DNA from: Mytilus trossulus
Taxonomy: Eukaryota
Assembly: GCF_036588685.1 (NCBI RefSeq)
Contig: NC_086374.1
Span: forward strand, 96,348,001-96,412,000
DNA length: 64,000 nt
Direction: 5' to 3'
Shown: positions 1,155 through 53,756 of the stretch, piece by piece
Numbering within the stretch: the stretch's first letter is position 1
How the letters are laid out: every line of letters starts with the position of its first letter
Made by a program: the position numbers and the translations under genes
Notes under the pieces: generated by a model
The model's input: the letters and a program-made list of their open reading frames with translations, nothing else
Database searches by the model: none
Told to the model about the DNA's origin: nothing

Positions 1155-1223
1155 TCAACAACTGTCACGCTGTGCTTTGATTTGTAGTGTTATAATTGGA
1201 ATGTCTTCATTATTCCAGTCGCC
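1155..1223 (-). CDS. TBH: TBH/DBH last coding exon
   Basis: ttcag|GDWNNEDIPIITLQIKAQRDSC-TGA; the terminal Cys matches the conserved partner of the DOMON Cys. Confidence 0.88.
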   Translation of the reverse strand, partial: GDWNNEDIPIITLQIKAQRDSC

Positions 1224-4200
1224 CTGAAAAAATAGAACTTATAAATTAGAAATATGAGAACTCTGTTGACCAACATTTCTATACTAATAAGTCACCGATC
1301 TACTCATACTGTGGATTTATATATTTTAGTTGGTACCAATTTTCGTGGATTTAGGAAAAATAGCATTTTCGTGGATATCTATTTTTGATGATTTTGGCGT
1401 AGTCATTTCTTTTAAAAGTGTAATTCGTTGAACATTTATATTCGTTGTTTCATTGTATCGATGAATCCACGAAAATAGATATCCATCGAATTTTAACGAA
1501 TACACAGTAGTCATATCTTCAATACTGTCATGATTTAATACAAACTTTTCTTATGTATAAACTTAAAAGATTTTTTTATGAAATTGTGTGTTCAACTCCC
1601 TCAGACAAAGTTGACCTTAAATGAATTTTGGCTATTAGTTTTGGTTAATTTTGGTCATAACGCTCTTCAAGTACTTCGGTTCTAATACATCTTTGGCTAT
1701 AATTCATTTGGCTTTGAGCTTTCCCGATGAAATTATTCCATAAAAGCGCATTGAACGCTGTAATTTATGAAGTGTTGTCTCATGTTTTATTTGGCTAATT
1801 CAATTTTATGATTACAATATAATGTCTCTTACAATGACTCATTTTTTCTAATTATCAAAACAAAGAGACAAATTGAATTCAAGAATTTATATTGATCATG
1901 TTATAATTTTGATTTCCATTTTTTTGTGTTTTTAGGGTTTCATTTTGGCTTCGTAGCACTTCAAAATTTGAATATAATTGCATCGGCCTCAAATAGAATG
2001 AATATATCAGAATAAATGTTTTATAATAATATTTTATCATCACTTTTTTTCTAAAAATGTCAGATTTACTAAATATATTTATGCAACTGATGCGTTCAAG
2101 GTTAACGATTTCCTTTCTTAACACGTATTTGCTTTTTTCTTAAATGTGGATTAATTTAAATTAGTATTGACAGAGAAGAGAAGATGCATCGTTATCAGTA
2201 GTAATAATAAACCATAAGATTTAAACAAAACTAGAAAAATGCAATTGACAGATACTCACTGGGAATCGGGTTCCGTCTGATCGATTACATTGCATCGATA
2301 ATGGTGCGATATCGTAAAAAGTGCTCAACATCTGACTTGCTCGATCAGACCATTTAATGGACTGGTAGTTTTCTGCAACGTTTTGCGTCGATGACGTGTT
2401 ATCTTTGTAACGTCTAAAAATGGAAAAAGGATTTTTATGTTTTGTTGAAGTATAAAACAATACAATTGTCCACTTAAAGCTGCCACAAAGATTCAACTGT
2501 TGTCTTTGTTACGAAAGCTTGTGAATAATTTAATTATAGAAACAGGATTGCAATTGTCTAAAAAAAACTCATTAGTTAAAACGGCAAAATAATGTGTAAA
2601 GTTAAAGAACAGCGAGGACATAACATTTCTAAAGCTTTTGCAAAGCACAGCTTAAGTAATCTTTTGTTAGGGAGGATGTTGTTGCATCTAGACACCTATT
2701 TTTTTAACAGTCATTTAATTAAAATGACTATATCCACACTGATGCTTACGGGAGAGAAACCTCCACCAAAAAGTGGCTTTAACCAATTGATTAAAGATAA
2801 ACTCATCACAGATACCAGGATTATAATTATGAATGCAACGCACGTCTTTTTCAACAAAAGATTATGTTACGCTCGATTCAAGTATATTCTAAGAAAACAC
2901 CAGAATATATACGAAATGGGCACTCAAAACTCATAAGCTGTTCGATTTTTTCCCCAGTGAAATATGCAAAACAGTTACATATGAATACGTTTGTTTGTAA
3001 ATATAATGTCCTAAGGACAATCCATAGCTTTCTATGATACCCTTTTAATAAGTAACAATGCAATAACTAACTATGACATTATCATCTTACTTATTCATAA
3101 ACCTAAAGAATGCCTGAAGGGCGTCTGAGTCGACAGAACTCTTGCAGACTTCTAAATCAACTGCTGGGTAGTAGTGAATATAGTTCACACACATTTCTTC
3201 TTTGATAGAAAAGCCACCCTAAAAATAAAGATTGTTCCGAGGAAGGCTACATTTATATAAGTTGTTTAAATAAAGGCAACAGTAGGATACCGCTGTTCGA
3301 AATTCACAAATCGATTGAGAAAAAAATAAATCCGGATAACAAATTAAAACTGAGGAAACAAAACAAAGATAAGAGGTGAACAGCGACACAACAGAAACAC
3401 AAAAATGAAACACACAAAGAAACAAATTATTACATAACAATAACCATTTTGTACAGGGATATTTCTGTTACATAGTTCCTAAACGAAACAAACAATTAAA
3501 ACAACTTGTAAGACTTTATTTTAAGTATTGTTTGATAAACTGTTAGTTTGGAATTCAAATGCATATCCTCGTTGTAAAAAAATGTATGTGTTTCTACGTA
3601 TTGTTTGTCAATGAATACAATTGTCCCATGGCAGTTCTATTATAAATACGTTCTCCGACGTTTATTTCAAGTTTTTAAAACTGACAAAGAATATGTCAAA
3701 GTATGAGACATGTATATATCAGCATTTAAGACTATTTTTTACTTCTTCTGGTTGCATTAACTAGTAAACGAATTTGTGGTTGAAACTGTCATTTTTATCT
3801 TAACATCATCTGATCAATCTTTATAATATTATGCATAAGTTGTTTTGTTATGTTCAGTTTTTCAGTAATGAATTCATTACTATTCAGACAACTCCTTGCA
3901 GTCAATTCGGTCCGGTTCAGTAGCTTGTCATAGAATTCGGTATGCTGTTGATCTGTATAAAAGAATTCAACTTCTGAGCAATGAGCGAAAAAAGTACTAG
4001 ACAGTAAGCGAATAATCTGAATAAACAGCATTCAATTAACTGCAGTCCTTAGGTCTGAAATTTGAAATTGGCAAAACAAAAAATTACTTTACAATATTCT
4101 GTTCAGTCTTTTATGAGCTGTTTATATCAAATGATCGCTTAAGATTGATATTCGTTTAATAGCGTTGAATAACATGAGGCATAGCCTCAAATTTGCATAT

Positions 4201-7200
4201 ATGTTATGTTGGCATGTGGAGCAGGATCTGCTTACCCTTCCGGAGCACCTGAGATCACCCCTAGTTTTTGGTGGGGTTCGTGTTGTTTATTCTTTAGTTT
4301 TCTATGTTGTGTCATTTGTACTATTGTTTTTCTGTTTGTCTTTTTCATTTTTAGCCATGGCGTTGTCAGTTTGTTTTAGATTTACGAGTTTGACTGTCCC
4401 TTTGGTGTCTTTCGTCCCTCTTTTTTTGGTAAAACACACACCAAAAAACTTATACTACATTCATAATTTTTCTCTTGGAACGCGACTCTAGTATTATTAA
4501 AACGCACTTAAGGGAAATAAATAATCATACTGGCCCGAGATTGAAGTCATTCTGAACACAAATATATAGGGACAGCTTCAAATTGAGGGGTTATATATTC
4601 AATTTGACAGATTAACCCATACTCATTTTTGACCTTTTTCAACTGAACCATATCACTTATCTACCTGTTAATTCATGTCCCAGTTTTTTCTCAAAGTGTA
4701 AAAGAGTGCTCCTACTATCAGCATAGTTTTATCAAAAATATACCGCAATGTATTTTGTCATCAAATTTAAATTTCTGTAAATTCAGTCTGGTGTAATTAA
4801 AACTGAAGTTTAAGGTCATCAAACTGATGTTTCAAACATTTACAATTCTAACTTAATTGTAATGCTGATTAATCTCAGCATATGCTAAATTCAAAAGATT
4901 GCTTACTAATGTGATGTTCTCTCTATCAAGTGTACTATCCTCACATGTAGTTATAAGACTGTCTCCCTAAAAATAATAAGGCAGTATAGCATATATGACT
5001 TACAAAAATTGGCATAGTTTTCGAAATTCATCCCTTTAAAATACTTTTGCGTTTGTTTCAGTCGTATAAAAGTCTACTTAATGTAAAACTATTGCCAGGA
5101 TACGTATCGCAGGTCTTAAAGTGTTTCAAATCGATCTTAAACATTTATCAAACTTTTTTTATTTTTAAAAAGACTAAATTATTGATTAAAAACACAAATG
5201 AGTGCTCTAATCTGCAAAGTATTTACAGCTTTTGTTCAAATACATTACAGTCATAATTGCTATCATTTCTCATATTCTTAAGTAAGATGAACCATGTGCT
5301 TTTAAAAATATTATAGCTGTCAGTGACATTCGTACATACAGCAAACATGAAATATTCCTTTTTTTTATATTGATTGTTTTCTTTATTACTTTATTCTTTT
5401 AAAATGATTACACCTACTGGTAAAACAACGACCGGTTCTTGTAGTCTTCTTATCTCTTGAAAATGTGGACTATAATGATTGTCTCTATTCAGTTCTGGTA
5501 ATTCTTTTCCATTCCTGACATGCTTTGTGTATACACGTTTCCCTGTCATATGCGTGTGCAATTGAGAAGCATATATGTGTATGCCTGTTCTTGGTAACGC
5601 CTGTAAAATGAAAAATATATATATATATATATTTATTGAGAAGCGAAAACTTGACAGCTAGGAACTTATAGCTGGGTTTATACAAGTATGCAAACCTTAA
5701 GTGTATCAACAAATCTGTTTGCCAATACGTTAATTTGATATCATGGTTTTGTTGCAATTAACATGATTTACATTTGTAAACGAAAAATGTTTTCTTTAAA
5801 TTACCTCAATCGAAATTGAATATGTTACTAGATCTCAGCTAGTTTATTTAAAAAGCTGTTGTTTAATATATCATTTAATACATGATTCTCACAGTTCGTG
5901 TGCAATCCGCGATACAGTATCCTGTCAGAGAAAACAAGTTCTGGTTTGGAGGAATCGCCATTTTGTTTGTGTATTCCAACCCCAGCTCCATTATCCCCGA
6001 ATCAAATTTTCTCAGTTTACTTGTAACATACAAACGGATACCAGACGAATCTTTCATACCTGTAAATAATTATAGTATATTAATAAGGCTAAAACAAAAT
6101 TGATGCAAAATGGATAAACATATTACATGCTAAAACATCGGTTGAAATATTTGCGTTATAACAGTATAAAACTGAATGCGAACAGAGAACATCAACATAT
6201 TTGCATAGAGCATTTGGAATGTACTAATTGAAAAATTTCAGCTAATCGAATGTGTCTTAGGTCATGGCAACATACCAAATACATTTTTTATCTGACAATA
6301 AGTTACATTTTTATCACAGTGACTTCTCTCGAGGGGTCAGTGAGTGTCGTTTTGCAATATATAATATCTCTCTCTGTATAAAACATTGAAACTACATCGT
6401 CACTATTAGATTTGTTTTAGAATGCTCGTAAATTAGTAAGTCTTTGAAGCCAGTGCCTTTTCGATATAAGATATGGTAACTGTCATATCTTATAAACAGA
6501 ATTATGTATACAGACAATAACTGTTGATGATGGCAAATACAACTAAGGTGATATTCATGAATTAATTATGATCTAGATAATGAGTTGTTCAAGACAGAAC
6601 AAATGACCACTTTGAATTCAGTGAATAATTCCTACATATATAGGTTCTAAAAAGCTGCAAAAATTCCATAGCAGCATCGTATTTCATCTGAATAGCTGAA
6701 CGTTCTTGTTAAAGCTAGTTTGTATAACGAAATATTGCGTGAATCTACGTAAAATATATTTTCATTACACTCATAAGCGTGTTTAAGCGGCTTTTTAGGC
6801 ATATTATTTGGATATTGTATATATATCTTTTAGAATATTTTCTTTAATAGAAGTGACAATAATGATGGTCTTTTTAAAGGGCCCTTTCAAAACAATAAGT
6901 ATCTCTCTGACATGTCTTAAATCAGTACATGCATAGATAACCTAGTTTTCCTTTAATAACAAAGACTAATGAAAAACACATTATTTTGTAACCGTTAGCA
7001 ATAATGCATGTGCAAACATCTTCATTTTCCTTTATTATGATAGATCTTCCGACTATTTGACATTTGACCTAAATAGCTATTCAGCCAGCTATATAAACAG
7101 TTCTGTTCTCAAAAACCATGACAAGGGTATAAAAGGTAGACAATTAATTATTATGCTCCACCTACAATAGTAGAGGGGCATTCAGTTTTCTGGTCTGTGC

Positions 7201-10200
7201 GTCCGTTCGTCTGTCCGTCGTATCGTTCGTTCGTTCGTTCGTCTGTCCCGCTTCAGGTTAAAGTTTTTGGTCAAAGTAGTTTTTGATGAAGTTGAAGTCC
7301 AATCAACTTGAAACTTAATATGCATGTGCCCTATGATATGATCTTTCTAATTGTAATGCCAAATTAGAGTTTTGATCCCAATTTAACGGTTCACTGAACA
7401 TAGAAAATGATAGTGCAAATTGCAGGTTAAAGTTTTTTGTCAAAGTAGTTTTTGATAAAGTAGAAGTCCAATCAATTTGAAACTTAGTATACATGATAAG
7501 ATCCTTCTAATTTTAATGCCAAATTAGAGAATTTATTCCAATTTCACTGTCCACTAAACATGGAAAATGACAGTGCGAGTGGGTTATCCGTGTACTGTGG
7601 ACACATTCTTGGTTTTTTTTCAATGATTATGCAGGGATAACAAACGAGAATCATCTTTCAAAATTAATTCTTAAATTGCTGTATTAATTACAGAGGAACT
7701 AATTTAATAATTGCCTTTACTTTTATACATGTGCTAGCGATATGCTTTGTCATTACTGTTACCTTGGGTCAGCTGTGGGTTATTATAATGTACCTCTAGC
7801 AACACAAATCTACGTTACAGTTACCTTGGGTCAGCTGTGGGTTATTATAGTGTACCTCTAGCAACACAAATCTAGACCAACCATCACCGCCTACTGGTGT
7901 TCCAGCTTCCTCTGGTAATGTAACAGACTACAATATATTATCTAAGTAACAATGGTGCTGAAAAAATATTGCTTTACCAATACCCATGGGTAAAGAATTT
8001 TATAATTGAAATGTGCAAATACCTGCACATTTTGATAAGACAACGAATTAGAGGATTATTTTCGCAAACGTACAACATTATTGTAGAGTTAAAAATCTGT
8101 TTGTATGACGCATATGGAAAAAAACTGGCTGTAAATTATATAAGACAAGTGAGGTCTTTTTGGTTTGGCATATATATTTGTATTGCATCGCCATGATGGC
8201 TCTTGTCTTACCTAGCACTTATGTTCTAATTAATTATTTGTATACAATATAGAGTAATTACAGAGTAATAACAGAGTCACTGTAAATTATTCTTCCAATA
8301 TTTCAAGCAAGTCAATAATATGCAACACAACTTGCATTTAGGTTGGTAGAATGTGAACATGAAGGGAGCGTAAGATAAACAGGCGGAAAGAGAAAGAGAT
8401 AAGTCTGATAATAAGACACATAAGAAACATTTTACTTCCTTCTTATTGTATAAAACTATTCTTTCGCTCTGTCAATTTAAATAAATTCTGTTAAATTATA
8501 GTTATTTAAAATCTTTATCGTCATGGATATTTTTTATTTTGGAATTGATCGCGACCTATGTGTACTAGTATCTATTACTTACTGATGCGCCCATTGCCCA
8601 TGCGCCAATGACTTTACGACAGATTGACAACCCTGGTGGTTTTCCTTCCGCTAAACCAGGACCATTATATGATGGTACAACTTCGTTTGGTCCGGCTTCA
8701 CAATGAAATAGTTCCATGTGGTGAACAAGATGTTCGTGGCCTTTTTCGATGATCCCTTCATACTACGAGAACACGTAGGAAAAAGGTTTATATATTAAAG
8801 TCTTGTTATAATTTTAAGATGATAAAAACATGGATATTGAGTGGCAACATAATAACTACATTAACTCTTTCAAAAAATTGCTATATATTGGAATTTGCGT
8901 GTTATTTCTCAGTTCTTTTTCAGTTAAAAAAAATATAGTTATTGTGACGTCTTTTTTCACTGCACCAGTACACATTCTTTGTTTGGAGACCAACTGAAGC
9001 CCACTTTCTGGTGCTGGATTTTCTCGGTGTGTTGGAGACTTATTGGTGGCCTTTGTGTTGTTTTTTGCTAATTGGTCGGGATGATGTCTTTTCGAAACAT
9101 TTCCCATTTTAATTCCCAATTTCATCATAAAAACTATCATATTTTAAATACATAATATGATTGGAGAACGTTTGCTTGGTTTGATTCAGATTTACTTCAT
9201 ACATTTTTAGGTTTCTCATTGTAATGTTACCTTGATGATATGATGTTTCCGTTTGAAATCTGGTAACTTCGTTAGATACCACCAGTAAGTAGTATCAGTT
9301 GATGGAACTGTTATCTATAAATATATATAGACAGGAACTTAAACATTATCACACATTTGGAACTAAAAGAGGGGCGAAAGATTTCAAAGGGACAGTCAAA
9401 CTCATAAATTTAAAACAAACTGACAACGCCATGCATGGTGTCATCAAAACCGTGATTATAACATTTTAAGTTCGTCGATAATCTTGTATGCTATTGGCAT
9501 GTGCCTAGATTGATTTCTATGCCATCAATATTTTGATCAATCCTAAAAATTTACACTACGATTTTTTTTGCAGATTAAGAAGTCAAACTATTTAAAACTG
9601 AATAAAGAAAGCCATTCTATAAAAGTTTAATACAATTTATGATCTGTTTACTTTATTTGATAATATTTAAGGAAATAAAGCCGTTCCAATTATTAGATAC
9701 CAATATGCTAAAGTGCAAAATAAAATTGTGATTTCGCCTATAAACAGGTCATTGGACTTAATTGTTGCAGACCATTGCGTATTTGCGTTACCTAGTAGAA
9801 TACATACCTCTTGGTTCGTGACGTCAATTACCGATGTGTCGTCTGGCATGTTCACATCTGGAATATCTGGTTTTAAAATTTGAACTCTTTGCAAGCCTTT
9901 CTTATTCTCTAAAGTGTTGATCCGTTTGGGATATCCGTAGCCAGTGAAAAATATAATGTGTGTCGTTCCATTCTGTTAAACATACAAATAGTTTTATTAC
10001 ATTCTACTTATTTTATACATGTGACGAAACAATGTATCTTGGAATAGGCTCCTGGGTATAAATCAATTTTTTTTCTAATATAGGATTTCGCTATATTTTT
10101 CTCTAAATAAACTTTATCCTATACCTAACAGAAAAATAAAATAAAAATATGGGGTTACTGTTCATTTAGGCTCACAATCTGCCATCGAAAAAAGCATGCA

Positions 10201-13200
10201 TTTTTGTTTAGGTACTTTTTTTCTGTTGAACTAATAGGAGAGAAAAAAGGTAAAATCGAAATAAAAAAAGAACCTAATATAAGAAATTGCTTAAATTTTA
10301 CAATTGTTTAGTTTAAGTGCAGCTTATTTGAAAAAAATGATAAAAAAAATATAGGTCACCGATAAGTTTAAAAAGATATTTCAATTTTAATGCCAAAAAA
10401 TCTCATTTTTTTTCACCGAAGGGAGATAATTTGGAGCTTTTTCAATGATATCAAAATTTTAAAAATCATTTGGGGCTAAAACGCCTTGATTTTTTGGGTT
10501 GATTTTTTTACCATAACATAATGTTACAACTTATAATGTAATGAATAAAATTTGTTATGAAAAATAAATGTTTAAATATTTGCTGATTTTTGTTGTACCT
10601 ACGAGCCTCCTTAAGTGAATCATGAGCTTTTGTATTTGTTCCTTTTATTCAAGATTGAATAAAGTGATATTGCGAAGTGTACAACAGTCTAAAAAATAGT
10701 CGAACATCCTGTTTCCCCCATAATATGATTGAATTATAAATTTATAATTACAATATGATCAATTATACAAGATCGCATATATGAAAACATTCTGTCAAAG
10801 AGTGTCAGAGGAGTTGCATTCAAAAAGTGTCATTGTTGTAATATAGCATTGGCGAATCCAAATGGGGTTTCCGGGGGTTGAACCCCCCTTTTTTTCTTGG
10901 CCGATAAATGCATTTGAATGGGAACATATAGTTAGAACCCCACCCCTTTTGTCTTGGGTTAGGACCCCCTTTTTTTAAATGACTGGATCCGCCCCTGTAC
11001 AATAGTAAAATAATGATCATATCTTAATGACAGTCTTATCAGGTCAACTATTTCTGTGAACAAACAATCCTAGCAAGTACGAGTGCTTTCTGTTAAAAGG
11101 TGTCAAAAAAGTTTCGTGCACAAAGTAACCAGATTTCTCTCAAACGGTCTCTTGAGTATTTGTGTGTTTCGCGGGACAAACGTACGAACAGACGGACGAA
11201 TATAGACCATCACCACCATCCTAACTCATCCCAGCCCCCACCCCAAAGCGTGTGCAAGGTGGTCAAAAACTTTTCAAAATAAAAATGTATACGAAAACTG
11301 CTGCACTAGAATGTTCTTACTTATCATTGTTTTTCAAATGTTTAACAACAAAATGGGTCCCGAATCAGTTTTGTGATATAAACCGCGTTTTAACTAAAAC
11401 TTACGTCTAGCTTGTAATCGTCTCCGTCACATGTATCGAACTTCCTAATGAATTCTAGCGTAAATCTGTTATATTTCCACTTTACAGTACGAGTCCGGAC
11501 GTAGTTTTGGTTTTGGTCAATGTGTATGTATCCTTTATTGTCTGTATGGGCGTCCTAAATTAAAAAGGTAATAAAATAACAAAAGATTTTTTTCACAAAA
11601 ATTAACAAAAGATTTTTTTTAAAAACCTAACAAAACATACTTAGTAGACGATTTGGGTTTACAAATTAATGGAAGTCAAAGTTGACCTTAAACCTCACTT
11701 CTTCCAGTTTTGTATTAAACAATCATACAAGTTTCATACGATTCCTTAATTTTGATTGGCCGTGACATTTCAAAATGTATATTTCATTTCCGTGTAAATT
11801 GCAACATCTAGCATGACTGTACGTGTTCAGTGATAAAGTCAAAACAATGTTTAAACAAACAAGAGAAAGCTTTTTGTAACTAGTATTTTAATGGTTGTTG
11901 CATAATTATGTAATAGTAAGAATTGAATGCTTCATAGGATCGTGCACATCTAAGGCATCCGTTCGAGCTATCCGTTAAGGTGTGACCGAGGCTTAAAAGT
12001 ATGACGCGCTTTCATATTAAATCTGTCTCGGTCAACTCTTTTACAAACTATAATAATACAAAAATAGATATTCAATTCTTGAAGACATTACCAAACTTTC
12101 AAACTGAGTCCGGACTTAAACCATCTCGAAACTAAATACTGGGCATATAATGTTTTCCATTTGACTCTCAATTTATCAATCGTTGGTGAATACATTATTC
12201 ATACTATCTAAAGGAGGAACTTACTTTGAACATTGTATTTCCAAATAAGTCCTTCCAAAACAAAACCGAATCATACTATCTAAAGAGGGAACTCAATTTG
12301 AACATTGTATTACCAAATAAGTCCTTCCAAAACAAAACCAAATCATACTATCTAAAGGGGGAACTTACTTTGAACATTGTATTACCAAATAAGTCCTTCC
12401 AAAACAAAACCAAATCATACTATCTAAAGGGGGAACTTACTTTGAACATTGTATTACCAAATAAGTCCTTCCAAAACAAAACCAAATCATACTATCTAAA
12501 GGGGGAACTTACTTTGAACATTGGATTACCAAATAAGTCCTTCCAAAACAAAACCAAATCATACTATCTAAAGGGGGAACTTACTTTGAACATTGGATTA
12601 CCAAATAAGTCCTTCCAAAACAAAACCAAATCATACTATCTAAAGGGGGAACTTACTTTGAACATTGTTTTATCAAATAAGTCCTTCCAAAACAAAACCA
12701 AATCATACTATCTAAAGGGGGAACTTACTTTGAACATTGGATTATCAAATAAGTCCTTCCAAAACAAAACCAAATCATACTATCTAAAGGAGGAGCTTAT
12801 TTTGAACATTGTATTACCAAATAAGTCCTTCCAAAACAAAAACAAATCATACTATCTAAAGGAAGAACTTACTTTGAACATTGGATTACCAAATAAGTCC
12901 TTCCAAAACAAAACCAAATCATACTATCTAAAGGGGGAACTTACTTTGAACATTGTATTACCAAATAAGTCCTTCCAAAACAAAACCAAATCATACTATC
13001 TAAAGGGGGAACTTACTTTGAACATTGGATTACCAAACAAGTCCTTCCAAAACAAAACCAAATCATACTATCTAAAGGAGGAACTTACTTTGAACATTGT
13101 ATTACCAAATAAGTCCTTCCAAAACAAAACCAAATCATACTATCTAAAGGAGGAACTTACCTTTAACATTGTATTACCAAATAAGTCCTTCCAAAACAAA

Positions 13201-13502
13201 ACCAAATCATACTATCTAAAGGGGGAACTTACTTTGAACATTGTATTACCAAATAAGTCCTTCCAAAACAAAACCATATCAGCATTCTCACATTCTCCGT
13301 AATCAGAAAACCCGAACGACAACCATTCGTTTGGTCGCAGTTTTCCTTGTATCCGAAACTTCACCAGTTCATCAGCATAATTCACATTCCATAGCAAGTT
13401 AAGTGATTTGTCCATACTTAGAATTGTTTCATAATCAAAATGTTCGGCAAAAATAATAGTATAACATAAAAATATGAAATACACAAATGAAATATATTTC
13501 AT
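1155..13502 (-). CDS. TBH: Tyramine/dopamine beta-hydroxylase (copper type II ascorbate-dependent monooxygenase), complete 12-exon gene, about 570 aa
   Basis: Exons (minus): 13502-13233, 11554-11405, 9972-9808, 9314-9231, 8762-8583, 7927-7825, 6059-5893, 5600-5418, 4966-4907, 3218-3091, 2413-2260, 1223-1155. All introns are GT-AG with consistent phases. Signal peptide MKYISFVYFIFLCYTIIFA; DOMON domain (WLSFGFSDYG..ADMVLFW, RKFDTCD); CuH ligands LVHHMELFHC and EVHYNNP; CuM ligands SQLHTH and EEMCVNYIHYYP; DNHYSPHFQEIR. Confidence 0.95.
2260..2413 (-). CDS. TBH: TBH/DBH exon 11
   Basis: tttag|RYKDNTSS...ENYQSIKWS...APLSMQCNRSDGTRFP|gtgagt. Confidence 0.93.
3091..3218 (-). CDS. TBH: TBH/DBH exon 10 (CuM Met)
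   Basis: tttag|GGFSIKEEMCVNYIHYYPAVDLEVCKSSVD...FMN(K)|gtaaga; ends phase 2. Confidence 0.95.
4216..4425. repeat. Abundant dispersed (SINE/retroelement-tail-like) repeat
   Basis: gtggagcaggatctgcttacccttccggagcacctgag...gactgtccctttggt..tcgtccctctttt; the same 3' block recurs at about 915-985, 9363-9432 (reverse) and 57775-57915. Confidence 0.7.
4907..4966 (-). CDS. TBH: TBH/DBH exon 9
   Basis: tttag|GDSLITTCEDSTLDRENITL|gtaagc; 60 nt. Confidence 0.92.
5418..5600 (-). CDS. TBH: TBH/DBH exon 8 (CuM HxH)
   Basis: tacag|ALPRTGIHIYASQLHTHMTGKRV...NRDNHYSPHFQEIRRLQEPVVVLP|gtaggt. Confidence 0.95.
5893..6059 (-). CDS. TBH: TBH/DBH exon 7
   Basis: tacag|(G)MKDSSGIRLYVTSKLRKFDSGIMELGLEYTNKMAIPP...GYCIADCTRT|gtgaga. 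Confidence 0.95.
7145..7612 (-). mobile_element. Helentron/pearl-like MITE with two internal ~165-bp tandem units and a (TTCG)n microsatellite
   Basis: Reverse-orientation relative of 15745-16116; terminal hairpin (atgctccacctac..gtagaggggcat); internal duplication caggttaaagtttttggtcaaagtagttttt. Confidence 0.7.
7753..7874. repeat. 62-bp tandem duplication of the 3' end of TBH exon 6 plus its donor site
   Basis: ttac(t/a)gttaccttgggtcagctgtgggttattata(a/g)tgtacctctagcaacacaaatcta occurs twice, period 62. Confidence 0.95.
7825..7927 (-). CDS. TBH: TBH/DBH exon 6
   Basis: tgtag|SVTLPEEAGTPVGGDGWSRFVLLEVHYNNPQLTQ(G)|gtaact; 103 nt, ends phase 1. Confidence 0.92.
8583..8762 (-). CDS. TBH: TBH/DBH exon 5 (CuH His-His)
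   Basis: cgtag|YEGIIEKGHEHLVHHMELFHCE...CRKVIGAWAMGAS|gtaagt; 180 nt. Confidence 0.95.
9231..9314 (-). CDS. TBH: TBH/DBH exon 4
   Basis: tatag|ITVPSTDTTYWWYLTKLPDFKRKHHIIK|gtaaca; 84 nt. Confidence 0.92.
9808..9972 (-). CDS. TBH: TBH/DBH exon 3
   Basis: aacag|NGTTHIIFF...GLQRVQILKPDIPDVNMPDD...NQE|gtatgt; 165 nt. Confidence 0.93.
10847..10997. mobile_element. Short GC-rich MITE (TIR about CAGGGGCGGATCCAG)
   Basis: cattggcgaatcca...ctggatccgcccctg; close relative at 40017-40171 and a similar one at 49443-49597. Confidence 0.65.
11405..11554 (-). CDS. TBH: TBH/DBH exon 2
   Basis: tttag|DAHTDNKGYIHIDQNQNY...FIRKFDTCDGDDYKLD|gtaagt; 150 nt. Confidence 0.93.
12199..13278. repeat. 72-bp minisatellite, 15 copies, made of the TBH exon-1 3' end plus the 5' splice site
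   Basis: Unit tcatactatctaaagggggaacttactttgaacattgtattaccaaataagtccttccaaaacaaaaccaaa starts at 12199+72n (n=0-14); the last unit overlaps the real exon. Confidence 0.97.
13233..13502 (-). CDS. TBH: TBH/DBH coding exon 1 (signal peptide and DOMON N-terminal part)
   Basis: MKYISF...ADMVLFWKDLFGNTMFK followed by donor GTAAGT; 270 nt, phase 0. Confidence 0.9.
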
Positions 13503-15744
13503 TTTGCTGCTCTTTGAATCAGTAAGCACGATATGCTTGTTATAGTAACGAACTATATTTCTTCTTTTATATGTTCCTTAAAGATTCCTCTTGAGAAAGG
13601 CTTGAAGAACTAAGTAATTCTACATCGACATTTTTTTTATTCAACGAAATTTGGCGTATTTTCTTATCTGTAATATATGTAGGTTGTAATCGAATTATTA
13701 ATGCTTCCTTTAGACGCCAGGGATATTTAAATTATCGCTCTAAGATAAAAACAAATTTCAAATTAGATTCTTAATTACTATTCTTTAGTGTAAATTTAGA
13801 GCCATCAATTAGAAAAATATTTTTATCTAGTTATTCTTGTCTAATTTCATTTCATGCAAAAGGAATGAAGATGTACATTTCTCGTTGGTCATTACCCTCT
13901 CCCAGACAATGGAAGCGAGCTTGACAGGTGCTTCCCAAATTGATTCCGGATATTAAATGAGTGTCGACAAAATGAATATTTCTTTATTTCTTTATTCAGT
14001 TAAAGATAGCTCTGAATTAATTTGTAGTTATTGATGCAATGTTTTGTTGTCGAAAATTTAATCAAGTGTTTACAAAAAAATGAGTTTCGTGACAAGTTTT
14101 CGTTCAATTACCGCTTAAGTAATTGATGACATTTGATTTCTTGTATATTGCTGTATTTGTTGATTTTCGTGTATTACGCATTCATTACATGCTTTCTGGC
14201 ATGTTAAACATATTAGGATTGGTCTGGAATTATATTTGATAGACACATATAGAAAGAACATTCGGTAAAACAAACTGCTGCGTTCTTTTCTGTATTTTAT
14301 TGCACCGAAAGAGAAAAAAGGGAGGAACAACTCAGATAATGCACTGCAGCAATAACTAAATTGATTCCACAAGGTTATGTTGAGACCAGATATGTGTAGT
14401 TGATTAAAAATCAATGGCTGTTTAAAGCTGTTCAAAAAACCAAAGGCACATCCAACGGCTTCGGAAAGAAAAAAATAAAATGCCAGCACGTAAAACAAAA
14501 CGAGACCGGTTGTAACCTCGATTGAGTTATTCAATAGTGATCAATCTTCCCTTCAAAATGTGAACGGATTTTCAGTTAATCTTTCAGATATTCTTCATTA
14601 TAGACTAATACTACTGCAAAGTACAAAGCAAACAAAAACAAGGAAGACAGATTGAAAATCATATGATTCCCTTATTTGCCAAATCAATCACAATGAAGAC
14701 TGTCTCCCTCATCAACGAACCATCCGCCCATTTTCTGGCATACTACCCAGAATTCACTTAATCGGAGAAAATCCTTTTTAAGATCAACTGCATCTCTTGC
14801 ATAATATGGTGAATTACAATCGTGACAATCACCAGCCAAATCATTTGCCTAAAATGTACATATTATCTGCAAAAATTAGTCAAAATTATGGCATTCTATC
14901 GGCACTATTTTTTTAATTTGATGTTGCGGCTTTATACACATGATTCTTTTTACAGTTTTTTTTTCAAATTTTTAATGTGCAATGACTGTATCAGATTTTT
15001 CGGAGTGATTATTTGACTTATATTATATTTCTAGATTGTTACAAATACTGCACAATGAAGAAATCTCCGGTGTAAAATAGCAAGAATATTTCAAAGTTGC
15101 TATAGATCACAAAACCAAAATCAAAAACAAAAAGCTTACTAAGGAAAGTCAAAAAATCATAAGAAGCAACTTCCAGGTCGACTGTATAATAATTAGTAAA
15201 AATTAGTGTTGTCAACGGTTAACCGGTTAATCGGTTAATCGATCGAACGACCGAATACCGAATACTCAAAACGCTAACCGGTTAACCGGATTTTTTTAAA
15301 TTACGATAGATTTGATATAAATTTGTGTTGAAAATCAAATCATTAAATAGTTATGTTTTATTTTAAAATTGTCGTCGTCGTAATTAGTTTGACAGATCAA
15401 TTGTCCAGTATATTGATTGCTATTGTTAATCCTAAAAACATAAACATTAATTAGAGTTCGGGGCAGGATATTTAAGAAACATAATTAGTAAACATGTTTT
15501 TTTAACAGTAACTTTAAATCGGTAAAGAGATTTAATTTGACAAATTACTTCATTACTTCGTTTTCGATCTAATATTGTGAAAACCTACATTTAAATGTGC
15601 AACCTCCGTAGTGCAAGGGTTAGTCTTACTTTAAATTAAAAAATTGCGAAATGCAAACCAATGTGAATGTACTCAATGTATACGTGAAAGTACGAGAAAC
15701 ATACTTAAAGAAAAAAGCAAAAACAGTGATCAAACAGGTTACTA

Positions 15745-16487: not shown

Positions 16488-19400
16488 CAGCCTCAGAACA
16501 TTCCTGTCAGGAAGATAAAACCTCAGAACATTCCTGTAGGGAAGATAAAGCCTTATAACATTCCTGTAGGAAGGATAAAGCATCAGAAAATTGCTGTCGG
16601 GAAAATAAAGCCTCAGAACATTGCTGTAGGGAAGATATAAAGCCTCAGAACATTCCTGTAGGGAAGATAAAGCCTTATAACATTCCTGTAGGGAAGATAT
16701 AAAGCCTCAGAACATTCCTGTAGGGAAGATAAATATCAGAACATTCCTGTAGGGAAGATAAAGCCCCAGAACATTCCTGTAGGGACGATATAAAGCCTCA
16801 GATCATTCCTGTAGGGAAGATAAATATCAGAACATTCCTGTAGGGAAGATAAAGCCCCAGAACATTCCTGTAGTGACGATAAAGCCCCAGAACATTCCTG
16901 TAGGTAGAGATAAAGCCTCAGAACATTCCTGTAGTGAAGATAAATCATCGAAACATTCCTGTAAGGAAGGTAAAGCCTCAGAACATTCCTGTAGGGACGA
17001 TAAAGCCCAAGAACATTCCTGTAGGGACGATCAATCCCCAGAACATTCCTGTAGGGAAGATAAAGCCTCGGAACATTCCTGTAGGGAAAATAAAACATCA
17101 AAACATTCCTGTAGAGACGATTTAGCCTGAAAACATTCCTGTAGGAAAGATAAAGCCTCAGAACATTCCTGTAGGGAAGATATAAAGCCTCAGAACATTC
17201 CTGTAGAGTAGATAAAGCATCAGAACACTCCTGAAAGGAAGATAAAGCCTCGGAATATGCCTGTAGGGAAAATAAAACATCAGAACATTCCTGTAGGGAA
17301 GATAAAACATCAGAACATTCCTGTAGGGAGGATAAAGTCGTAAATTATTCCTTTAGGGAAGATAAAGCCTCAGAACATTCCTGTAGGGACGATAAAGCCC
17401 CAGAACATTCCTGTAGGGACGATAAATCCCAAGAACATTCCTGTAGGGAAGATAAAGCCTCGGAACATTCCTGTAGGGAAAATAAAACATTAGAACATTC
17501 CTGTAGAGAAGATTTAGCCTGAAAACATTCCTGTAGGAAAGATAAAGCCTCAGAACATTCCAGTAGGGAAGATATAAAGCCTCAGAACATTCCTGTAGAG
17601 AAGATAAAGCATCAGAACATTCCTGTAAGGAAGATAAAGCCTCCGAACATGCCTGTAGTGAAAATAAAACATCAGAACATTCCTGTAGGGAAGATAAAAC
17701 ATCAGAACATTCCTGTAGGGAGGATAAAGTCGTATATTATTCCTTTAGGGAAGATAAAGCCTCAGAACATTCCTGTAGGGACGATAAAGCCCCAGAACAT
17801 TCCTGTAGGGACGATAAATCCCCAGAACATTCCTGTACGGAAAATAAAACATCAGAACATTCCTGTAGAGAAGATTTAGCCTGAAAACATTCCTGTAGGA
17901 AAGATAAAGCCTCCGAACATTCCTGTAGGGAAGATATAAAGCCTCAGAACATTCCTGTAGAGAAGATAAAGCATCAGAACATTCCTGTAAGGAAGATAAA
18001 GCCTCGGAACATTCCTGTAGGGAAAATAAAACATGAGAACAACATTCCTGTAGGGAAAATAAAACATCAGAACATTCCTGTAGGGAGGATAAAGTCGTAA
18101 AATATTCCTTTAGGGAAGATAAAGCCTCAGAACATTCCTGTAGGGAAGATAAAGCCACAGAACATTCCTGAAGGGAAGATATAAAGCCTCAGAACATTCC
18201 TGTTGGGATGATAAAGCCTCAGAACATTCCTGTAGGGAAGATAAAGCCGCAGAACATTCCTGTAGGGAAGACATAAAGCCTCAGAACATTCCTGTTGGGA
18301 AGATAAAGCCTCAGAACATTCCTGTAGGAAAAATAAAGCCTCAGAACATTCCTGTAGGGAAGATAAAGCCCCAGAACTCTCCTGTTAGGAAGATAACGCC
18401 TCAGAACATTGCTGTAGGGGAGATAAAGCCCCAGAACATTCCTGTCGGGAGGATAAAGCCTCAGAACATTCATGTAGTGAAGAAAAAGCCCCAGAACATT
18501 TCTGTAGGGAAGAAAAAGCCCCAGAACATTGCTGTAGGGAAGATAAAGCCCCAAAACATTCATGTAGGGAAGATAAAGCCCCAGAACATTCCTGTAGGGA
18601 AGATAAAGCATCAGATCACTCCTATAGGGAAAATAAAGCCTCAGAACATTCCTGTAGGGAAGATAAAGCCTCAGAACATTCCTGAAGGGAAGATAAAGCC
18701 CTAGAACATTCCTGTATGGAAGATACAACATCAGAACATTCATGTAGGTAAGATTAAACCTCAGAACATTCCTGTAGAGAAGATAAAGCCTCAGAACATC
18801 CTGTAGGGAAAATAAAGCCTCCGAAAATTCCTGTAAGGAAGATATAAAGACTCAGAACATTCCTGTAGGGAAGATAAAGCCTCAGAACATTTCAGTAGGG
18901 AAGATAAAACATCAGAACATTGCTGTGGGGAAGATAAAGCCTCAAAACATTCCTGTAGGGAAGATAAAGCCCGAGAACATTCCTGTAGGGAAGATAAAGC
19001 CTCAGAACATTCCTGTAGGGAAGATATTAAGCCTCAGAACATTCCTGTAGTGAAGATAAAGCCTCAGAACATTCCTGTAGGGAAAAAAACATCAGAACAT
19101 GCCTCTAGGGAAGATAAAACATCAGAACATTCCTGTAAAGACGATAAAGCCTCAGAACATTTTTGTAGGGAAGATAAAACATCAGAACATGCATGTAGAG
19201 AAGATAAAGCCTCAGAACATCCTGTATAGAAAATAAAGCCTCCGAAAATACCTGTAAGGAAGATATAAAGACTCAGAACATTCCTGTAGGGAAGATAAAG
19301 CCTCAGAACATTTCTGTAGGGAAGATAAAACATCAGAACATTGCTGTAGGGAAGATAAAGCCTCAAAACATTCCTCTAGGGAAGATAAAGCCCCAGAACA

Positions 19401-22400
19401 TTCCTGTAGGGAAGATAAAGCCTCAGAACATTCCTGTAGGGAAGATATTAAGCCTCAGAACATTCCTGTAGTGAAGATAAAGCCTCAGAACATTCCTGTA
19501 GGGAAGAAAAACATCAGAACATGCCTCTAGGGAAGATAAAACATCAGAACATTTCTGTAGGGAAGATATTAAGCCTCAGAACATTCCTGTAGTGAAGATA
19601 AAACCTCAGAACATTCCTATAGGGTAGTAAAACATCAGAACATGCCTCTAGGGAAGATAAAACATCAGAACATTCCTGTAGGGACGATAAAGCCTCAGAA
19701 TATTCTTGTAGGGAAGATTAAACATCAGAACATGCCTGTAGGGAAGATAAATCACCAGAACATTCCTGTAGGGAAGATTAAGCCATAGAACATTCCTGTA
19801 GGGAGGATACAGCCTCAAAACATTCCTGTAGTGAAGGTAAAGCATCAGAACATTCCTGTAGGAAAAATAAAGCCTCAGAACATTGCTGTAGGGAAGATAA
19901 AGCATCAGAACATTCCTGTAGGGCAGATAAAGCCCCAGAACATTCTTGTAGGGAAGATAAAGCCCCAGACCAATCCTGTAGTGAAGATCAAGCCCCAAAA
20001 CATTCCTGTAGGGAAGATAAAGCCTCAGAACATTCCAGTAGGGAAGATAAATATCAGAACATTCCTGTAGGGAAGATAAAGTCCAAGAACATTCCTGTAG
20101 TGAAGATAAAGCCCCAGAACATTCCTGTAGGGAAGATAAAGCCTCAGAACATTCCTGTAGTGAAGATAAAGCATCAGAACATTTCTGTAAGGAAGGTAAA
20201 GCCTCAGAATATTCCTGTAGGGACAATAAAGCCCCAGAACATTACTGTAGGGAAGATAAAGCCTCGGAACATACCTGTAGGGAAAATAAATAATCAAAAC
20301 ATTCCTGTAGAGAAGATTTAGCCTGAAAACATTCCTGTAGGAAAGATAAAGCCTCAGAACATTCCTGTAGGGAGATATAAAGCCTCAGAACATTCATGTT
20401 GAGAAGATAAAGCATCAGAACATTCCTTTAAGGAAGATAAAGCCTCGGAACATGCCTGTAGTGAAAATAAAACATCAGAACATTCCTGTAGGGAGGATAA
20501 AGTCGTATATTATTCCTTTAGGGAAGATAAAGCCTCAGAACATTCCTGTAGGGACGATAAAGCCCAAGAACATTCCTGTAGGGACGATAAATCCCCAGAA
20601 CATTCCTGTACGGAAAATAAAACATCAGAACATTCCTGTACGGAAAATAAAACATCAGAACATTCCTGTAGAGAAGATTTAGCCTGAAAACATTCCTGTA
20701 GGAAAGATAAAGCCTCCGAACATTCCTGTAGGGAAGATATAAAGCCTCAGAACATTCCTGTAGAGAAGATAAAGCATCAGAACATTCCTGTAAGGAAGAT
20801 AAAGCCTCGGAACATTCCTGTAGGGAAAATAAAACATGAGAACAACATTCCTGTAGGGAAAATAAAACATCAGAACATTCCTGTAGGGAGGATAAAGTTG
20901 AAAATATTCCTTTAGGGAAGATAAAGCCTCAGAACATTCCTGTAAAGAAGATAAAGCCACAGAACATTCCTGTAGGGAAGATATAAAGCCTCAGAACATT
21001 CCTGTTGGGATGATAAAGCCTCAGAACATTCCTGTAGGGAAGATAAAGCCGCAGAACATTCCTGTAGGGAAGACATAAAGCCTCAGAACATTCCTGTTGG
21101 GAAGATTAAGCCTCAGAACATTCCTGTAGGAAAAATAAAGCCTCAGAACATTGCTGTAGGGAAGATAAAGCCCCAGAACTCTCCTGTTAGGAAGATAACG
21201 CCTCAGAACATTGCTGTAGGGGAGATAAAGCCCCAGAACATTCCTGTCGGGAGGATAAAGCCTCAGAACATTCATGTAGTGAAGAAAAAGCCCCAGAACA
21301 TTTCTGTAGGGAAGAAAAAGCCCCAGAACATTGCTGTAGGGAAGATAAAGCCCCAAAACATTCATGTAGGGAAGATAAAGCCCCAGAACATTCCTGTAGG
21401 GAAGATAAAGCATCAGATCATTCCTATAGGGAAAATAAAGCCTCAGAACATTCCTGTTGGGAAGATAAAGCCTCAGAACATTCCTGAAGGGAAGATAAAG
21501 TCCTAGAACATTCCTGTATGGAAGATACAACATCAGAACATTCCTGTAGGTAAGATTAAACCTCAGAACATTCCTGTAGAGAAGATAAAGCCTCAGAACA
21601 TCCTGTAGGGAAAATAAAGCCTCCGAAAATTCCTGTAAGGAAGATATAAAGACTCAGAACATTCCTGTAGGGAAGATAAAGCCTCAGAACATTTCAGTAG
21701 GGAAGATAAAACATCAGAACATTGCTGTGGGGAAGATAAAGCCTCAAAACATTCCTGTAGGGAAGATAAAGCCCGAGAACATTCCTGTAGGGAAGATAAA
21801 GTCTCAGAACATTCCTGTAAGGAAGATATTAAGCCTCAGAACATTCCTGTAGTGAAGATAAAGCCTCAGAACATTCCTGTAGGGAAGAAAAACATCAGAA
21901 CATGCCTCTAGGGAAGATAAAACATCAGAACATTCCTGTAGGGACGATAAAGCCTCAGAACATTCTTGTAGGGAAGATAAAACATCAGAACATGCATGTA
22001 GAGAAGATAAAGCCTCAGAACATCCTGTAGAGAAAATAAAGCCTCCGAAAATACCTGTAAGGAAGATATAAAGACTCAGAACATTCCTGTAGGGAAGATA
22101 AAGCCTCAGAACATTTCTGTAGGGAAGATAAAACATCAGAACATTGCTGTAGGGAAGATAAAGCCTCAAAACATTCCTCTAGGGAAGATAAAGCCCCAGA
22201 ACATTCCTGTAGGGAAGATAAAGCCTCAGAACATTCCTGTAGGGAAGATATTAAGCCTCAGAACATTCCTGTAGTGAAGATAAAGCCTCAGAACATTCCT
22301 GTAGGGAAGAAAAACATCAGAACATGCCTCTAGGGAAGATAAAACATCAGAACATTTCTGTAGGGAAGATATTAAGCCTCAGAACATTCCTGTAGTGAAG

Positions 22401-24100
22401 ATAAAACATCAGAACATTCCTATAGGGTAGTAAAACATCAGAACATGCCTCTAGGGAAGATAAAACATCAGAACATTCCTGTAGGGACGATAAAGCCTCA
22501 GAATATTCTTGTAGGGAAGATTAAACATCAGAACATGCCTGTAGGGAAGATAAATCATCAGAACATTCCTGTAGGGAAGATAAAGCCATAGAACATTCCT
22601 GTAGGGAAAATAAAGCCATAGAACATTCCTGTAGGGAGGATACAGCCTCAAAACATTCCTGTAGTGAAGGTAAAGCATCAGAACATTCCTGTAGGAAAAA
22701 TTAAGCCTCAGAACATTGCTGTTAGGAAAATAACGCCTCAGAACATTGATGTAGGGGAGATAAAGCCCCAGAACATTCCGGTAGGGAGGATAAAGCCTCA
22801 GAACACTCATGTAGTGAAGATAAAGCCCCAGAACGTTCCTGTAAGGAAGATAAAGCCATAGAACATTCCTGTAGGGAGGATACAACCTCAAAACATTCCT
22901 GTAGTGAAGGTAAAGCATCAGAACATTCCTGTAGGAAAAAATAAAACCTCAGAACATTGCTGTAGGGAAGATAAAGCCTCAGAACTTTCCTGTTAGGAAA
23001 ATAACGCCTCAGAACATTGATGTAGGAGAGATAAAGCCCCAGAACATTCCTGTAGGGAGGATAAAGCCTCAGAACACTCATGTCCAGAACATTCCTGTAG
23101 GGAAGATAAAGCCCCAGAACATTCCTGTAGGTAAGATTAAACCTCAGAACATTCCTGTTGGGAAGATAAAGCCTCAGAACATTCTGTAGTGAAAATAAAG
23201 CCTCAGAACATTCCTGTTAGGAAGATATAAAGACTCATAACATTCCTGTAGGGAAGATAAAGCATCAGAACATTTCTGTAGGGAAGATAAAACATCAGAA
23301 CATTGCTGTAGGGAAGATAAAGCCTCAAAACATTCCTGTAGGGAAGATAAAGCCCCAGAACATTCCTGTAGGGAAGATAAAGCCTCAGAACATTCCTGTA
23401 GGGAAGATATTAAGCCTCAGAACATTCCTGTAGTGAAGATAAAGCCTCAGAACATTCCTGTAGGGAAGAAAAACATCAGAACATGCCTCTAGGGAAGATA
23501 AAACATCAGAACATTCCTGTAGGGAAGATATTAAGCCTCAGAACATTCCTGTAGTGAAGATAAAACATCAGAACATTCCTATAGGGAAGAAAAACATCAG
23601 AACATGCCTCTAGGGAAGATAAAACATCAGAACATTCCTGTAGGGACGATAAAGCCTCAGAACATTCTTGTAGGGAAGATAAAACATCAGAACATGCCTG
23701 TAGGGAAGATAAATCATCAGAACATTCCTGTAGGGAAGATAAAGCCCCAGAACATTCCTGTAAGGAAGATAAAGCCATAGAACATTCCTGTAGGGTGGAT
23801 ACAGCCTCAAAACATTCCTGTAGTGAAGGTAAAGCATCAGAAGATTCCTGTAGGAGAGATAAAGCCTCAGAACATTCCTGTAGGGAAGATGAAGTCCGGA
23901 ACATCCCTGAAGGGAAGATAAAGCCTCAGAACATTCCTGTAGGGAAGATAAAGCCTCAGCAGAACAATACTGTCAGGAAGATAAAGCCTCAGAACATTCC
24001 TGTATGGAAGATAAAGCCTCAGAACATTGCTGTAGGGAAGATAAAGCCTCAGAACATTCCTGTATGGAAGATAAAGCCTCAGAATATTCCTGTAGGGAAG
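16488..24100. repeat. About 7.6-kb satellite, 30-bp unit (32-bp variants), roughly 250 copies, with a ~2.8-kb higher-order duplication
   Basis: Consensus aagcctcagaacattcctgtagggaagata; diagnostic variants recur 2802-2803 bp apart. Confidence 0.97.
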
Positions 24101-24795
24101 ACAAACTTGATAAATATGGACAATAACAGTGAGGGAACGACTATTTGATATTCTGGGGAGGGTTCAGGAAACAGTAGGATTTGTTTACGGATTTATGATT
24201 AATTTTATTAGGTTTTATCAATTCTATTTTCAGCTCTTACCAGGCCAACCATGATATTTATATTTAAAATACTCTATCTACCGTCCCAATCAAAAATAAT
24301 ATCAAATTATTTTCTCCTGATTTTTAACACGATTTTGAATTGATTTGGTGTTTACCGCTTGTTTCTAAGTGACAAATATTACATGCATGTCATGAAAAAG
24401 AACTCGAATCAGAAAGTCATGGAATATAATATAAAAATTTTAAAAATGAGGTAAAGTGCCAATGCGACAACTATATATTGGAGTATAAATTAAGAGGATA
24501 AGGAGTATTATAGGTAACTGTTTGGCCTTCAACAATGATAAAAATCCATCCCGCATAGTCCGCTATTAAAGGACCCGAAATGAAAAAAAAGGGAAACAAT
24601 TGAATCCAAAAAATAACGGCCTTATTATATGTATCTTTCATTAATTTGTAGGATCCTTTACTATAGATAATTTAGCTGATCTGTAACAATAACATATTCA
24701 TGCCTTATATATCATGTACTGTAGTACGCCGCTAGATTAAAACTGACGAGGAAAGGTAACATACGGCCAGCGAAAGCTCTATTATTAGTAGAGAC

Positions 24796-28914: not shown

Positions 28915-29739
28915 ATGCCTCCAGTTGTGAAACTTAATGTAGGTGGTAGACATTTTGAAACAAGACTTGAAACATTAAGGAAATATCCGGAATCAATGCT
29001 AGGAGTTATGTTTAGCGGCCGATATAAATTAGATTTGACCGATGATGGACGGTATTTCATAGACAGAAACGGTGATTACTTTGAACATATTTTAGAATTT
29101 CTGAGAGACAGCTCTTACCTACCACCTAAGGACTTTCTTTTCGCAGTTTTCCGCGAAGCTGACTATTTTGCCCTTGATGCACTATGCGATAAAATGACGA
29201 TGACACCACCAATATATCCATTTTGCGGTGACAGACCTGACCCAGTTCCAAATTACATGGAAATTAAAGAAAATATAATGAAAGAATCACGTGATTTCGT
29301 GAAAGCTACAGCACGCGGACAAACAATTGTATATTTACTTGCGCTTCAGGCCATTGAAGACCACCAGCCGTATCCTGAGTATGTGTATTCCAGTGAAATA
29401 AAGCACCTGTTGAAAATCGTTGTACCAATTGATAGTCCATGGGATTGTTTTTCACACCAATCAAATGCAATTAAAAGTATCGTAGATGAACAGGACATTG
29501 AGGGTATCGAAGATGTTCCACCTATACTTACATTTAAAGCTGAGAGCAAAGACCACGCTCTGTCTGTTTCCAATTGCTTATTCTTTGATTTAAAGAAACA
29601 CGGATTAGACATCAAAATGGAAAATGAAAACTGTACTTCACTAGGTTTTGTGGATCAATTTGATTTTAAAACAAAAGAATATGGAGAATTTGGATGTAAT
29701 CCTTGTCATCATCACAGTAAATTCACGTTCCTCTGGTAA
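28915..29739 (+). CDS. BTB/POZ (T1-type) domain protein, KCTD7/KCTD14-like; main exon
   Basis: VVKLNVGGRHFETRLETLRKYPESMLGVMFSGR...YFIDRNGDYFEHILEFLR...EADYFAL; C-terminal KFTFLW resembles the KCTD7/14 ends; preceded by acceptor tttttaatttgtag. Confidence 0.92.
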   Translation: MPPVVKLNVGGRHFETRLETLRKYPESMLGVMFSGRYKLDLTDDGRYFIDRNGDYFEHILEFLRDSSYLPPKDFLFAVFREADYFALDALCDKMTMTPPIYPFCGDRPDPVPNYMEIKENIMKESRDFVKATARGQTIVYLLALQAIEDHQPYPEYVYSSEIKHLLKIVVPIDSPWDCFSHQSNAIKSIVDEQDIEGIEDVPPILTFKAESKDHALSVSNCLFFDLKKHGLDIKMENENCTSLGFVDQFDFKTKEYGEFGCNPCHHHSKFTFLW

Positions 29740-53431: not shown

Positions 53432-53756
53432 TCAAAGAACAGTACATGTTTCACTGATAGTCCTTGTTTTTCCATATTTTTTATTAAAGTTATTTTTTTC
53501 TGCACTCGTTTCTGCAACGTCAACTAGAATTGTAACATCTTGGCCAGAATCGTGTCTTTTTGTAAGCTCTTCTTCTTCTATCACCTGGATCTCAACTCCA
53601 TCCTTTCCAATAACTGGTAGGGAACAATACGTATCAGCAGGTTCTTCCATAAAATCATCGTGTCGACCAATCAGAAAGTACGTATTTAACAGACCTTTAC
53701 CTTTCACCTCTATCCTTCCGCGGTCTCTGAATATGTAGTCCTCATTTATAAGCAAA
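53432..53756 (-). CDS. GUCY1B2: sGC last exon with C-terminal CaaX
   Basis: tacag|[30 protein letters not shown]...SETCTVL-TGA. Confidence 0.92.

Follow-up and report, generated by a model that had tools for sequence, protein, structure and literature searches.

The stretch of DNA analysed here, referred to as the window, comprises 64,000 nucleotides (nt) of the mussel Mytilus trossulus (RefSeq assembly GCF_036588685.1, contig NC_086374.1, positions 96,348,001 to 96,412,000 of the forward strand), and it contains on its minus strand a gene for a copper monooxygenase of the dopamine/tyramine beta-hydroxylase (DBH/TBH) type. Its first intron is occupied over 1046 of 1678 nt by an array of 72-bp units, each of which repeats the end of exon 1, the 5' splice site (donor) and the beginning of the intron. 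We describe the gene and the array, the other forms that this donor region takes in mussel samples, and what the reiterated donors might mean for splicing; all positions are counted from the first letter of the window.

The DBH/TBH gene and the array in its first intron

A query with exon 1 matched a Mytilus dopamine beta-hydroxylase-like protein, and the full gene model is identical to M. trossulus XP_063420908.1 at 541 of 541 residues and shares 89-92% identity with the other long members of the Mytilus protein cluster (n=5). The combination of domains that marks the family, namely one DOMON and two copper monooxygenase domains (PF03351, PF01082 and PF03712), was found on the cluster representative P0001, which matches the gene model at 513 of 570 positions. 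Human DBH (4ZEL) was recovered with an E value of 3e-166 over residues 3-533, and in the alignment with it HH at 237, HTH at 388 and EEMC at 461 are kept, at what we take to be the HH, HxH and Met copper-ligand positions of the family, as checked against the same human alignment. A MOXD name is absent from the best 120 of 829 homologues. By this human DBH match and these motifs, rather than by a tree against MOXD1, the host gene is assigned to the DBH/TBH copper monooxygenases. The choice between DBH and TBH is a matter of naming, because fly TBH is the 1:1 orthologue of human DBH according to the excerpted text of PMC10244343.

The RefSeq model, which is a prediction whose RNA support was not seen, joins the native donor to exon 2 and starts with the Met at 13415. 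An in-frame ATG lies upstream at 13502 and adds 29 hydrophobic-rich residues; these align with the beginning of P0001 and with that of the proteins from M. galloprovincialis and M. edulis. Three further Mytilus models (P0004, P0005 and P0006) differ at the exon 1/2 junction, through changed residues, three inserted residues or a start shortly ahead of the junction; poor transcript support or variation at the locus may account for this.

Tandem Repeats Finder (TRF) placed the array at 12199-13281 with a period of 72, 15.0 copies, 96% matches, 0% indels and a score of 1984. Each unit consists of the final 46 nt of exon 1 and the initial 26 nt of intron 1, adjoining units meet at a 3-nt microhomology (TGA), and the pairwise difference between units averages 3.1 of 72 nt. 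The fifteen donor positions run along the minus strand from 13232 to 12224 with all 14 spacings being exactly 72, and 21 nt separate the donor of one unit from the acceptor-like AG of its neighbour. An initial annotation, made from the sequence alone, had described a 15-copy unit of just this composition, with GTAAGT intact in 13 of the 15 copies (lost near 12800 and 12296), two AGs in every unit, and beside the real exon, at 13161, an AAG/GTAAGT closer to consensus than the native site; TRF and the unit alignment bear out this anatomy throughout, including the two AGs in 15 of 15 units. The coordinates are collected in Table 1.

Table 1. Features of the window (a slash within a motif marks the exon/intron boundary).
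Feature	Position	Strand	Basis
Whole DBH/TBH coding region: 12 exons, 570 residues, 11/11 introns GT-AG, single terminal stop	1155..13502	-	gene model
Coding exon 1, 90 residues: N-terminal hydrophobic stretch and first half of DOMON	13233..13502	-	Pfam DOMON residues 31-82, E 5.6e-11; tblastn of P0001 1-90
Native 5' splice site AAA/GTAAGT, first intron base 13232	13227..13235	-	13233-to-11554 join reproduces XP_063420908.1
In-frame TAG, codon 97, met by any exon 1 extension; its AG is the putative in-frame cassette acceptor	13212..13214	-	translation
Array of 15 x 72-bp tandem units in intron 1, first unit overlapping the real exon	12199..13278	-	TRF and unit alignment
Copy 2 donor AAG/GTAAGT (13161/13160)	13155..13163	-	unit alignment, U1 duplex energy
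Copy 7 donor, lost (ATAAGC)	12795..12800	-	unit alignment
Copy 14 donor, lost (TTGAGT)	12291..12296	-	unit alignment
Unique rest of intron 1 with true acceptor, no further AG within 58 nt	11555..12198	-	acceptor survey; X2 and X9 contig ends
Exon 2, second half of DOMON	11405..11554	-	Pfam, tblastn and gene model
62 bp x 2 duplication over exon 6 donor (7824, copy 7762), same DBH/TBH gene	7753..7874	-	TRF and donor comparison
BTB/POZ (KCTD-like) open reading frame	28915-29739	+	neighbour gene
MFS transporter	36637-40524	-	neighbour gene
Guanylate-cyclase-domain gene	53432-58218	-	neighbour gene
32 bp x 2 duplication (88%) over a donor of the guanylate-cyclase-domain gene; copy ends CAG/GT	57987-58052	-	TRF and donor comparison

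Other forms of the donor region and probable turnover of its units

Exon 1 together with two units (13141-13800) was compared with four of 24 runs (X1, X2, X6 and X9), all of whose records are contigs; X1 and X2 we guess to be DNA, X6 and X9 are of unrecorded kind, and the run records had been filtered. None of the 24 runs was listed as RNA, and the records listed for these four include neither a joint nor a loose end in exon 2, which weighs neither for nor against any splice form. X1, which is possibly the same sample as the source of the window, contains a cyclic contig of 102 nt (72+30) that begins and ends with the same 30 letters, thus closing one period with 0 differences; its word depth is 180 against 18-39 in the flanking contigs, depth not being equal to copy count. 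The 72-bp junction was seen in this one of the four runs, and given the filtered records its absence from X2, X6 and X9 was not counted. That the only run with the junction may be the source sample leaves some room for the array, or its copy number, being an artefact of assembly. However, the units are told apart by 17 distinct changes, several of them private, and the closed 72-nt period of X1, which comes from separately assembled contigs, argues against an error of the assembler, an explanation to which we accord almost no credence.

The other runs carry different arrangements. Two contigs of X2 share 30 nt of exon 1 and an endpoint 82 nt into the unique intron: one passes from a single donor directly into unique intron, its loose end differing from 12169-12198 at 1 of 30 positions, and the other is 66 nt longer and holds a second donor copy. 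A loose end in X9 differs from the same 30 nt at 2 positions; since the long intron contig of X9 may be the exit of a two-copy form, it was not counted as a single-copy allele. The second donor copy belongs to a second duplication of the exon 1 donor, with a unit of 67 nt reaching from 13285 in the exon to +14 in the intron, and its junction was found in three of the four runs (X2, X6 and X9, the record in X9 having only about 30 letters on one side), which represent two studies and two organism labels. The second copy has lost 1 nt in X2 and gained 6 nt in X6. Resting on a short match, the 67-bp form is likely a duplication separate from the 72-bp array, because, where part of the 72-bp junction is replaced, the four letters standing there agree with the native exon immediately upstream.

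On the evidence of these contigs the exon 1 donor region has at least three forms, namely one copy, 67 bp x 2 and 72 bp x 15, and since the single-copy and 67-bp forms occur in other runs the 15-copy array is not fixed. The term ‘variable number tandem repeat’ (VNTR), which the initial annotation had applied to the array, is not established for the 72-bp unit itself, differing numbers of which were not seen among these runs; what the runs demonstrate is the existence of other forms of the locus.

The variants within the array speak to its history. One exon variant recurs in five units (4, 6, 8, 10 and 11), and one intron variant is present in 10 of the 15, the other being found in the last unit and in the X2, X6 and X9 contigs. 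At the position equivalent to 13277 the 14 copies carry the base of the X2, X6 and X9 exons and the window's own exon differs, so that the residue encoded there by exon 1 of the window is Met, as against Leu in the repeat copies and in other Mytilus proteins. This change likely arose after the duplication, because the copies and the other mussels keep Leu where the window exon has Met. The pattern fits turnover of a young minisatellite by slippage or unequal exchange, as we infer from the distribution of the variants.

We also asked how often donors in this one window are tandemly copied, a copy being scored where the last 20 exon nt were matched at 16 or more of 20 positions within 150 nt of the donor. 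Among the 15 donors tested (11 of DBH, 2 of the cyclase gene, one of these at 56396, and 2 of the MFS gene) three have a tandem copy, as against 46 of 4771 random positions (about 1%), and with the selected array donor left out the figure is 2 of 14 (p 0.008, in a small sample). In the duplication at exon 6 both copies hold a GT donor of equal predicted strength, and use of the second would give a frameshift and then a stop. Tandem repeats make up 22% of the window as a whole. Two large satellites lie outside the DBH/TBH gene, one at 16489-24105 (30-bp unit, 7.6 kb, with signs of a higher-order repeat in the list of open reading frames) and one at 41004-44511 (29-bp unit, 3.5 kb), and a 28-bp unit is repeated 6.6 times at 55302-55487; degenerate inverted copies occur around 54020-54120 and 55207-55297.

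A hairpin was considered as the cause of the recurrent duplication but found no support, as the fold energies fell within those of shuffled sequences (z from -0.8 to +1.5 for eight DNA folds and from -1.1 to +1.9 for five RNA folds). In the predicted folds the exon end at 13221-13266 on the minus strand pairs with the donor and the bases that follow it, and among the 11 donors of the gene the native one of exon 1 has the lowest predicted accessibility (0.0007).

These observations bear on a proposal of the initial annotation that the array tunes the output of the enzyme for octopamine/noradrenaline synthesis. In its strongest form the array would be an evolved and selected dial on this synthesis, set by copy number. 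Bivalves carry one DBH gene according to a preprint known to us in part (10.64898/2026.08.17.745212), and dosage could therefore matter; moreover the exon 1 donor has been duplicated in two different ways. However, second copies decay, and the facts that the array is not fixed and that two other, unrelated donors of the window are duplicated as well point to a mutational process and not to evolved tuning. In addition, the human cases treated below use only the nearest copies, and copy number beyond 2-3 should therefore matter little. The tuning role is left unsupported by these results, and we regard a selected dial as extremely improbable.

Predicted outcomes for splicing

The initial annotation had further suggested that the units could be spliced in as 51-nt phase-0 cassettes to give DOMON-duplicated isoforms, each adding 17 residues within the domain. 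The frame is indeed kept by 14 of 14 such cassettes, which would lead to a product of 587 residues, although the peptide it had quoted is exact in only 5 of the 14 copies, and the preservation of both AGs in all units has a probability of 0.40 by chance. Against this stands the spacing of the AGs. The in-frame acceptor AG is preceded by others 4, 16 and 20 nt upstream, whereas all 11 true acceptors of the gene have 14 to more than 58 AG-free nt before them; for the cassettes the previous AG lies at 4 nt (in-frame) or 12 nt (frameshifting). The nearer AG defines the 55-nt frameshifting exon that had also been foreseen, and it leads, as claimed, to a frameshift with a stop at codon 93 in 14 of 14 copies. 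A donor lies 21 nt upstream of every unit acceptor, and coding constraint on the copies was not detected (the exon-like part has undergone 6 non-synonymous as against 3 synonymous changes, a share not below the neutral 83%; p 0.18, with few changes). The single-copy form in X2 lacks the cassette altogether and the 67-bp junction lacks both AGs. Furthermore, a duplicated peptide is present in none of the five Mytilus models (P0001-P0005) that span this stretch into exon 2, and a search for the cassette or a spliced junction among short Mytilus protein fragments gave one match, an uninformative read-through into exon 2. The insert would amount to 17 residues of the 124-position DOMON profile, which is no duplication of the domain. 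We find in-frame micro-exons very unlikely, and the idea of DOMON-duplicated isoforms has little support.

What survives as a possible consequence is donor competition with a premature stop. Whichever of the 14 later donor positions exon 1 were extended to, it would meet the in-frame stop at codon 97 (14 of 14), just as the initial annotation had predicted, and extension in the 67-bp form would also reach a stop. A stop with 11 exon junctions downstream is a classic substrate of nonsense-mediated decay.

The account that we hold to be probable is that of a junction-spanning minisatellite whose transcripts are spliced mostly at the native donor, the copies being mostly silent pseudo-donors. Tandem duplication of 72 bp spanning the donor of exon 1, likely by way of the 3-nt microhomology, would have been followed by expansion on one haplotype, likely through slippage or unequal exchange. 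Most transcripts are predicted to be spliced at the first, native donor, and a leak to a later one, most likely that of copy 2, would run into the codon 97 stop and yield a predicted decay substrate and no new protein. The duplication mechanism, the turnover of the array and the use of the first donor are what we infer from the sequence comparisons. First-donor use has counterparts elsewhere: according to the excerpted text of PMC1557585 only the authentic first donor is used in human F7, LMNB2 and PDGF, and the lancelet repeats known as mirages are reported to leave splicing undisturbed (Ebner et al. 2010, PMC3087553, in excerpt).

Several observations weigh against predominantly native splicing. 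Taking U1 duplex energy, with an 11-nt U1 motif, as a rough stand-in for donor strength, copy 2 has a predicted value of -10.6 kcal/mol versus -5.6 kcal/mol for the native site, the 11 true donors of the gene ranging from -4.4 to -8.8; copy 2, which matches the consensus, is therefore the predicted strongest donor of the gene. Of 16 distinct changes four fall within the 6-nt donor (p 0.04, uncorrected), a weak hint that the spare donors may not be fully neutral. The first-donor scanning model derives from work on mammalian cells and not on molluscs. In the available portions of PMC1557585, perfect downstream donors in F7 minigenes took about 70% and 90% of splicing, and two of the five human cases, 6-16 and CBS, use the nearest downstream pseudo-donors, namely the second or third; in CBS more units accompany lower enzyme activity (PMC5188458, likewise in part).

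The predicted strength of copy 2, the F7 minigenes, the human pseudo-donors and the stop at codon 97 in all 14 extensions would fit a leaky allele, in which the donor of copy 2 takes a sizeable share of splicing, exon 1 grows by 72 nt, the message is degraded and less enzyme is made, this being a side effect of the repeat rather than an evolved control. On the other hand, raising pseudo-sites in F7 to consensus values as high as 91 did not make them compete (PMC1557585, as excerpted), the native mussel donor is itself a full GTAAGT, the RefSeq predicted model picks that donor, and the change that strengthens copy 2 is known only from the window, the X1 contigs ending short of 13161. We therefore look upon a leaky allele as conceivable though rather unlikely. 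Its fullest version, in which a recurrently duplicated donor is outcompeted by copy 2 so as to create a segregating low-expression allele for noradrenaline/octopamine synthesis, strikes us as unlikely.

Relation to known repeats and implications

By the sequence features tested, the array belongs to the junction-spanning minisatellites (F7 IVS7 type or ‘mirage’). It consists of head-to-tail units of minisatellite size (72 bp x 15, 96%), the first of these straddles a real exon/intron boundary, whose donor recurs along the array (native 13232; GTAAGT in 13 of 15), and its units show turnover or homogenisation in the form of variants shared by 5 and 10 of the 15. As for allele length, one-copy and 67-bp two-copy forms occur in the four runs, among which differing 72-bp copy numbers were not seen. 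Repeats of this type are already on record from lancelets and from at least five genes of humans, a precedent that the initial annotation had not remarked upon. Our literature search, from whose scope most subscription papers were excluded, found no report of the array in Mytilus, and PMC10078293 is, in the part available, silent on the repeat type.

The comparisons that follow draw on excerpts of the papers cited. The 37-bp VNTR of human F7 intron 7 (Borensztajn et al. 2006, PMC1557585) resembles the mussel array in its boundary-spanning first unit, its reiterated donor and its several alleles. F7, however, has 4 exon nt in the unit, 5-9 copies and identical donors. In the mussel the exon contributes 46 nt to each of 15 copies, two of the donors have been lost, and the second outdoes the first in predicted strength; splicing was measured in F7 and is predicted in the mussel. 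The closest in unit size and copy number are human LMNB2 (100 bp x 10-15) and PDGF intron 4 (81 bp x 16-18), where the array likewise fills much of the intron (PMC1557585); the use of the authentic donor only was measured there, as opposed to the prediction made here. The 31-bp VNTR in intron 13 of human CBS and the minisatellite in intron 2 of 6-16 (IFI6) share with the mussel the 15-25 reiterated donors behind an exon of an enzyme or effector, and in them it is the second repeat that determines pseudo-donor use; they serve as the model for a leaky allele (PMC1557585, PMC5188458). Use of downstream donors has been demonstrated in these two, whereas the mussel offers sequence only, and an effect of copy number is reported in CBS only.

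Among invertebrates the counterpart is found in the amphioxus mirages of Adh3 and the globins BflGb6 and BflGb9 (PMC3087553), which are also tandem exon-intron boundaries and affect several genes. Their units measure 10-160 bp, haplotypes differ in copy number, the copies undergo concerted evolution, and they have been proposed as a route to new exons and introns. The mussel case differs in coming from a mollusc and in that one donor is seen, among the samples, to have been duplicated in two ways with distinct breakpoints.

As a repeat the array is ordinary; its use lies in the comparison of three natural forms of one donor region, one of them with a second donor that is predicted to be stronger. 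The excess of donor-spanning copies in the window (3 of 15) suggests that counting them across the whole Mytilus genome would be of value to models of how exons and introns are gained. The mussel forms provide a natural test of first-donor selection in a mollusc, and of whether a repeat of this kind reduces the amount of a monoamine enzyme; should copy 2 prove to outcompete the native site, they would let first-donor scanning be put to a natural test in an invertebrate.

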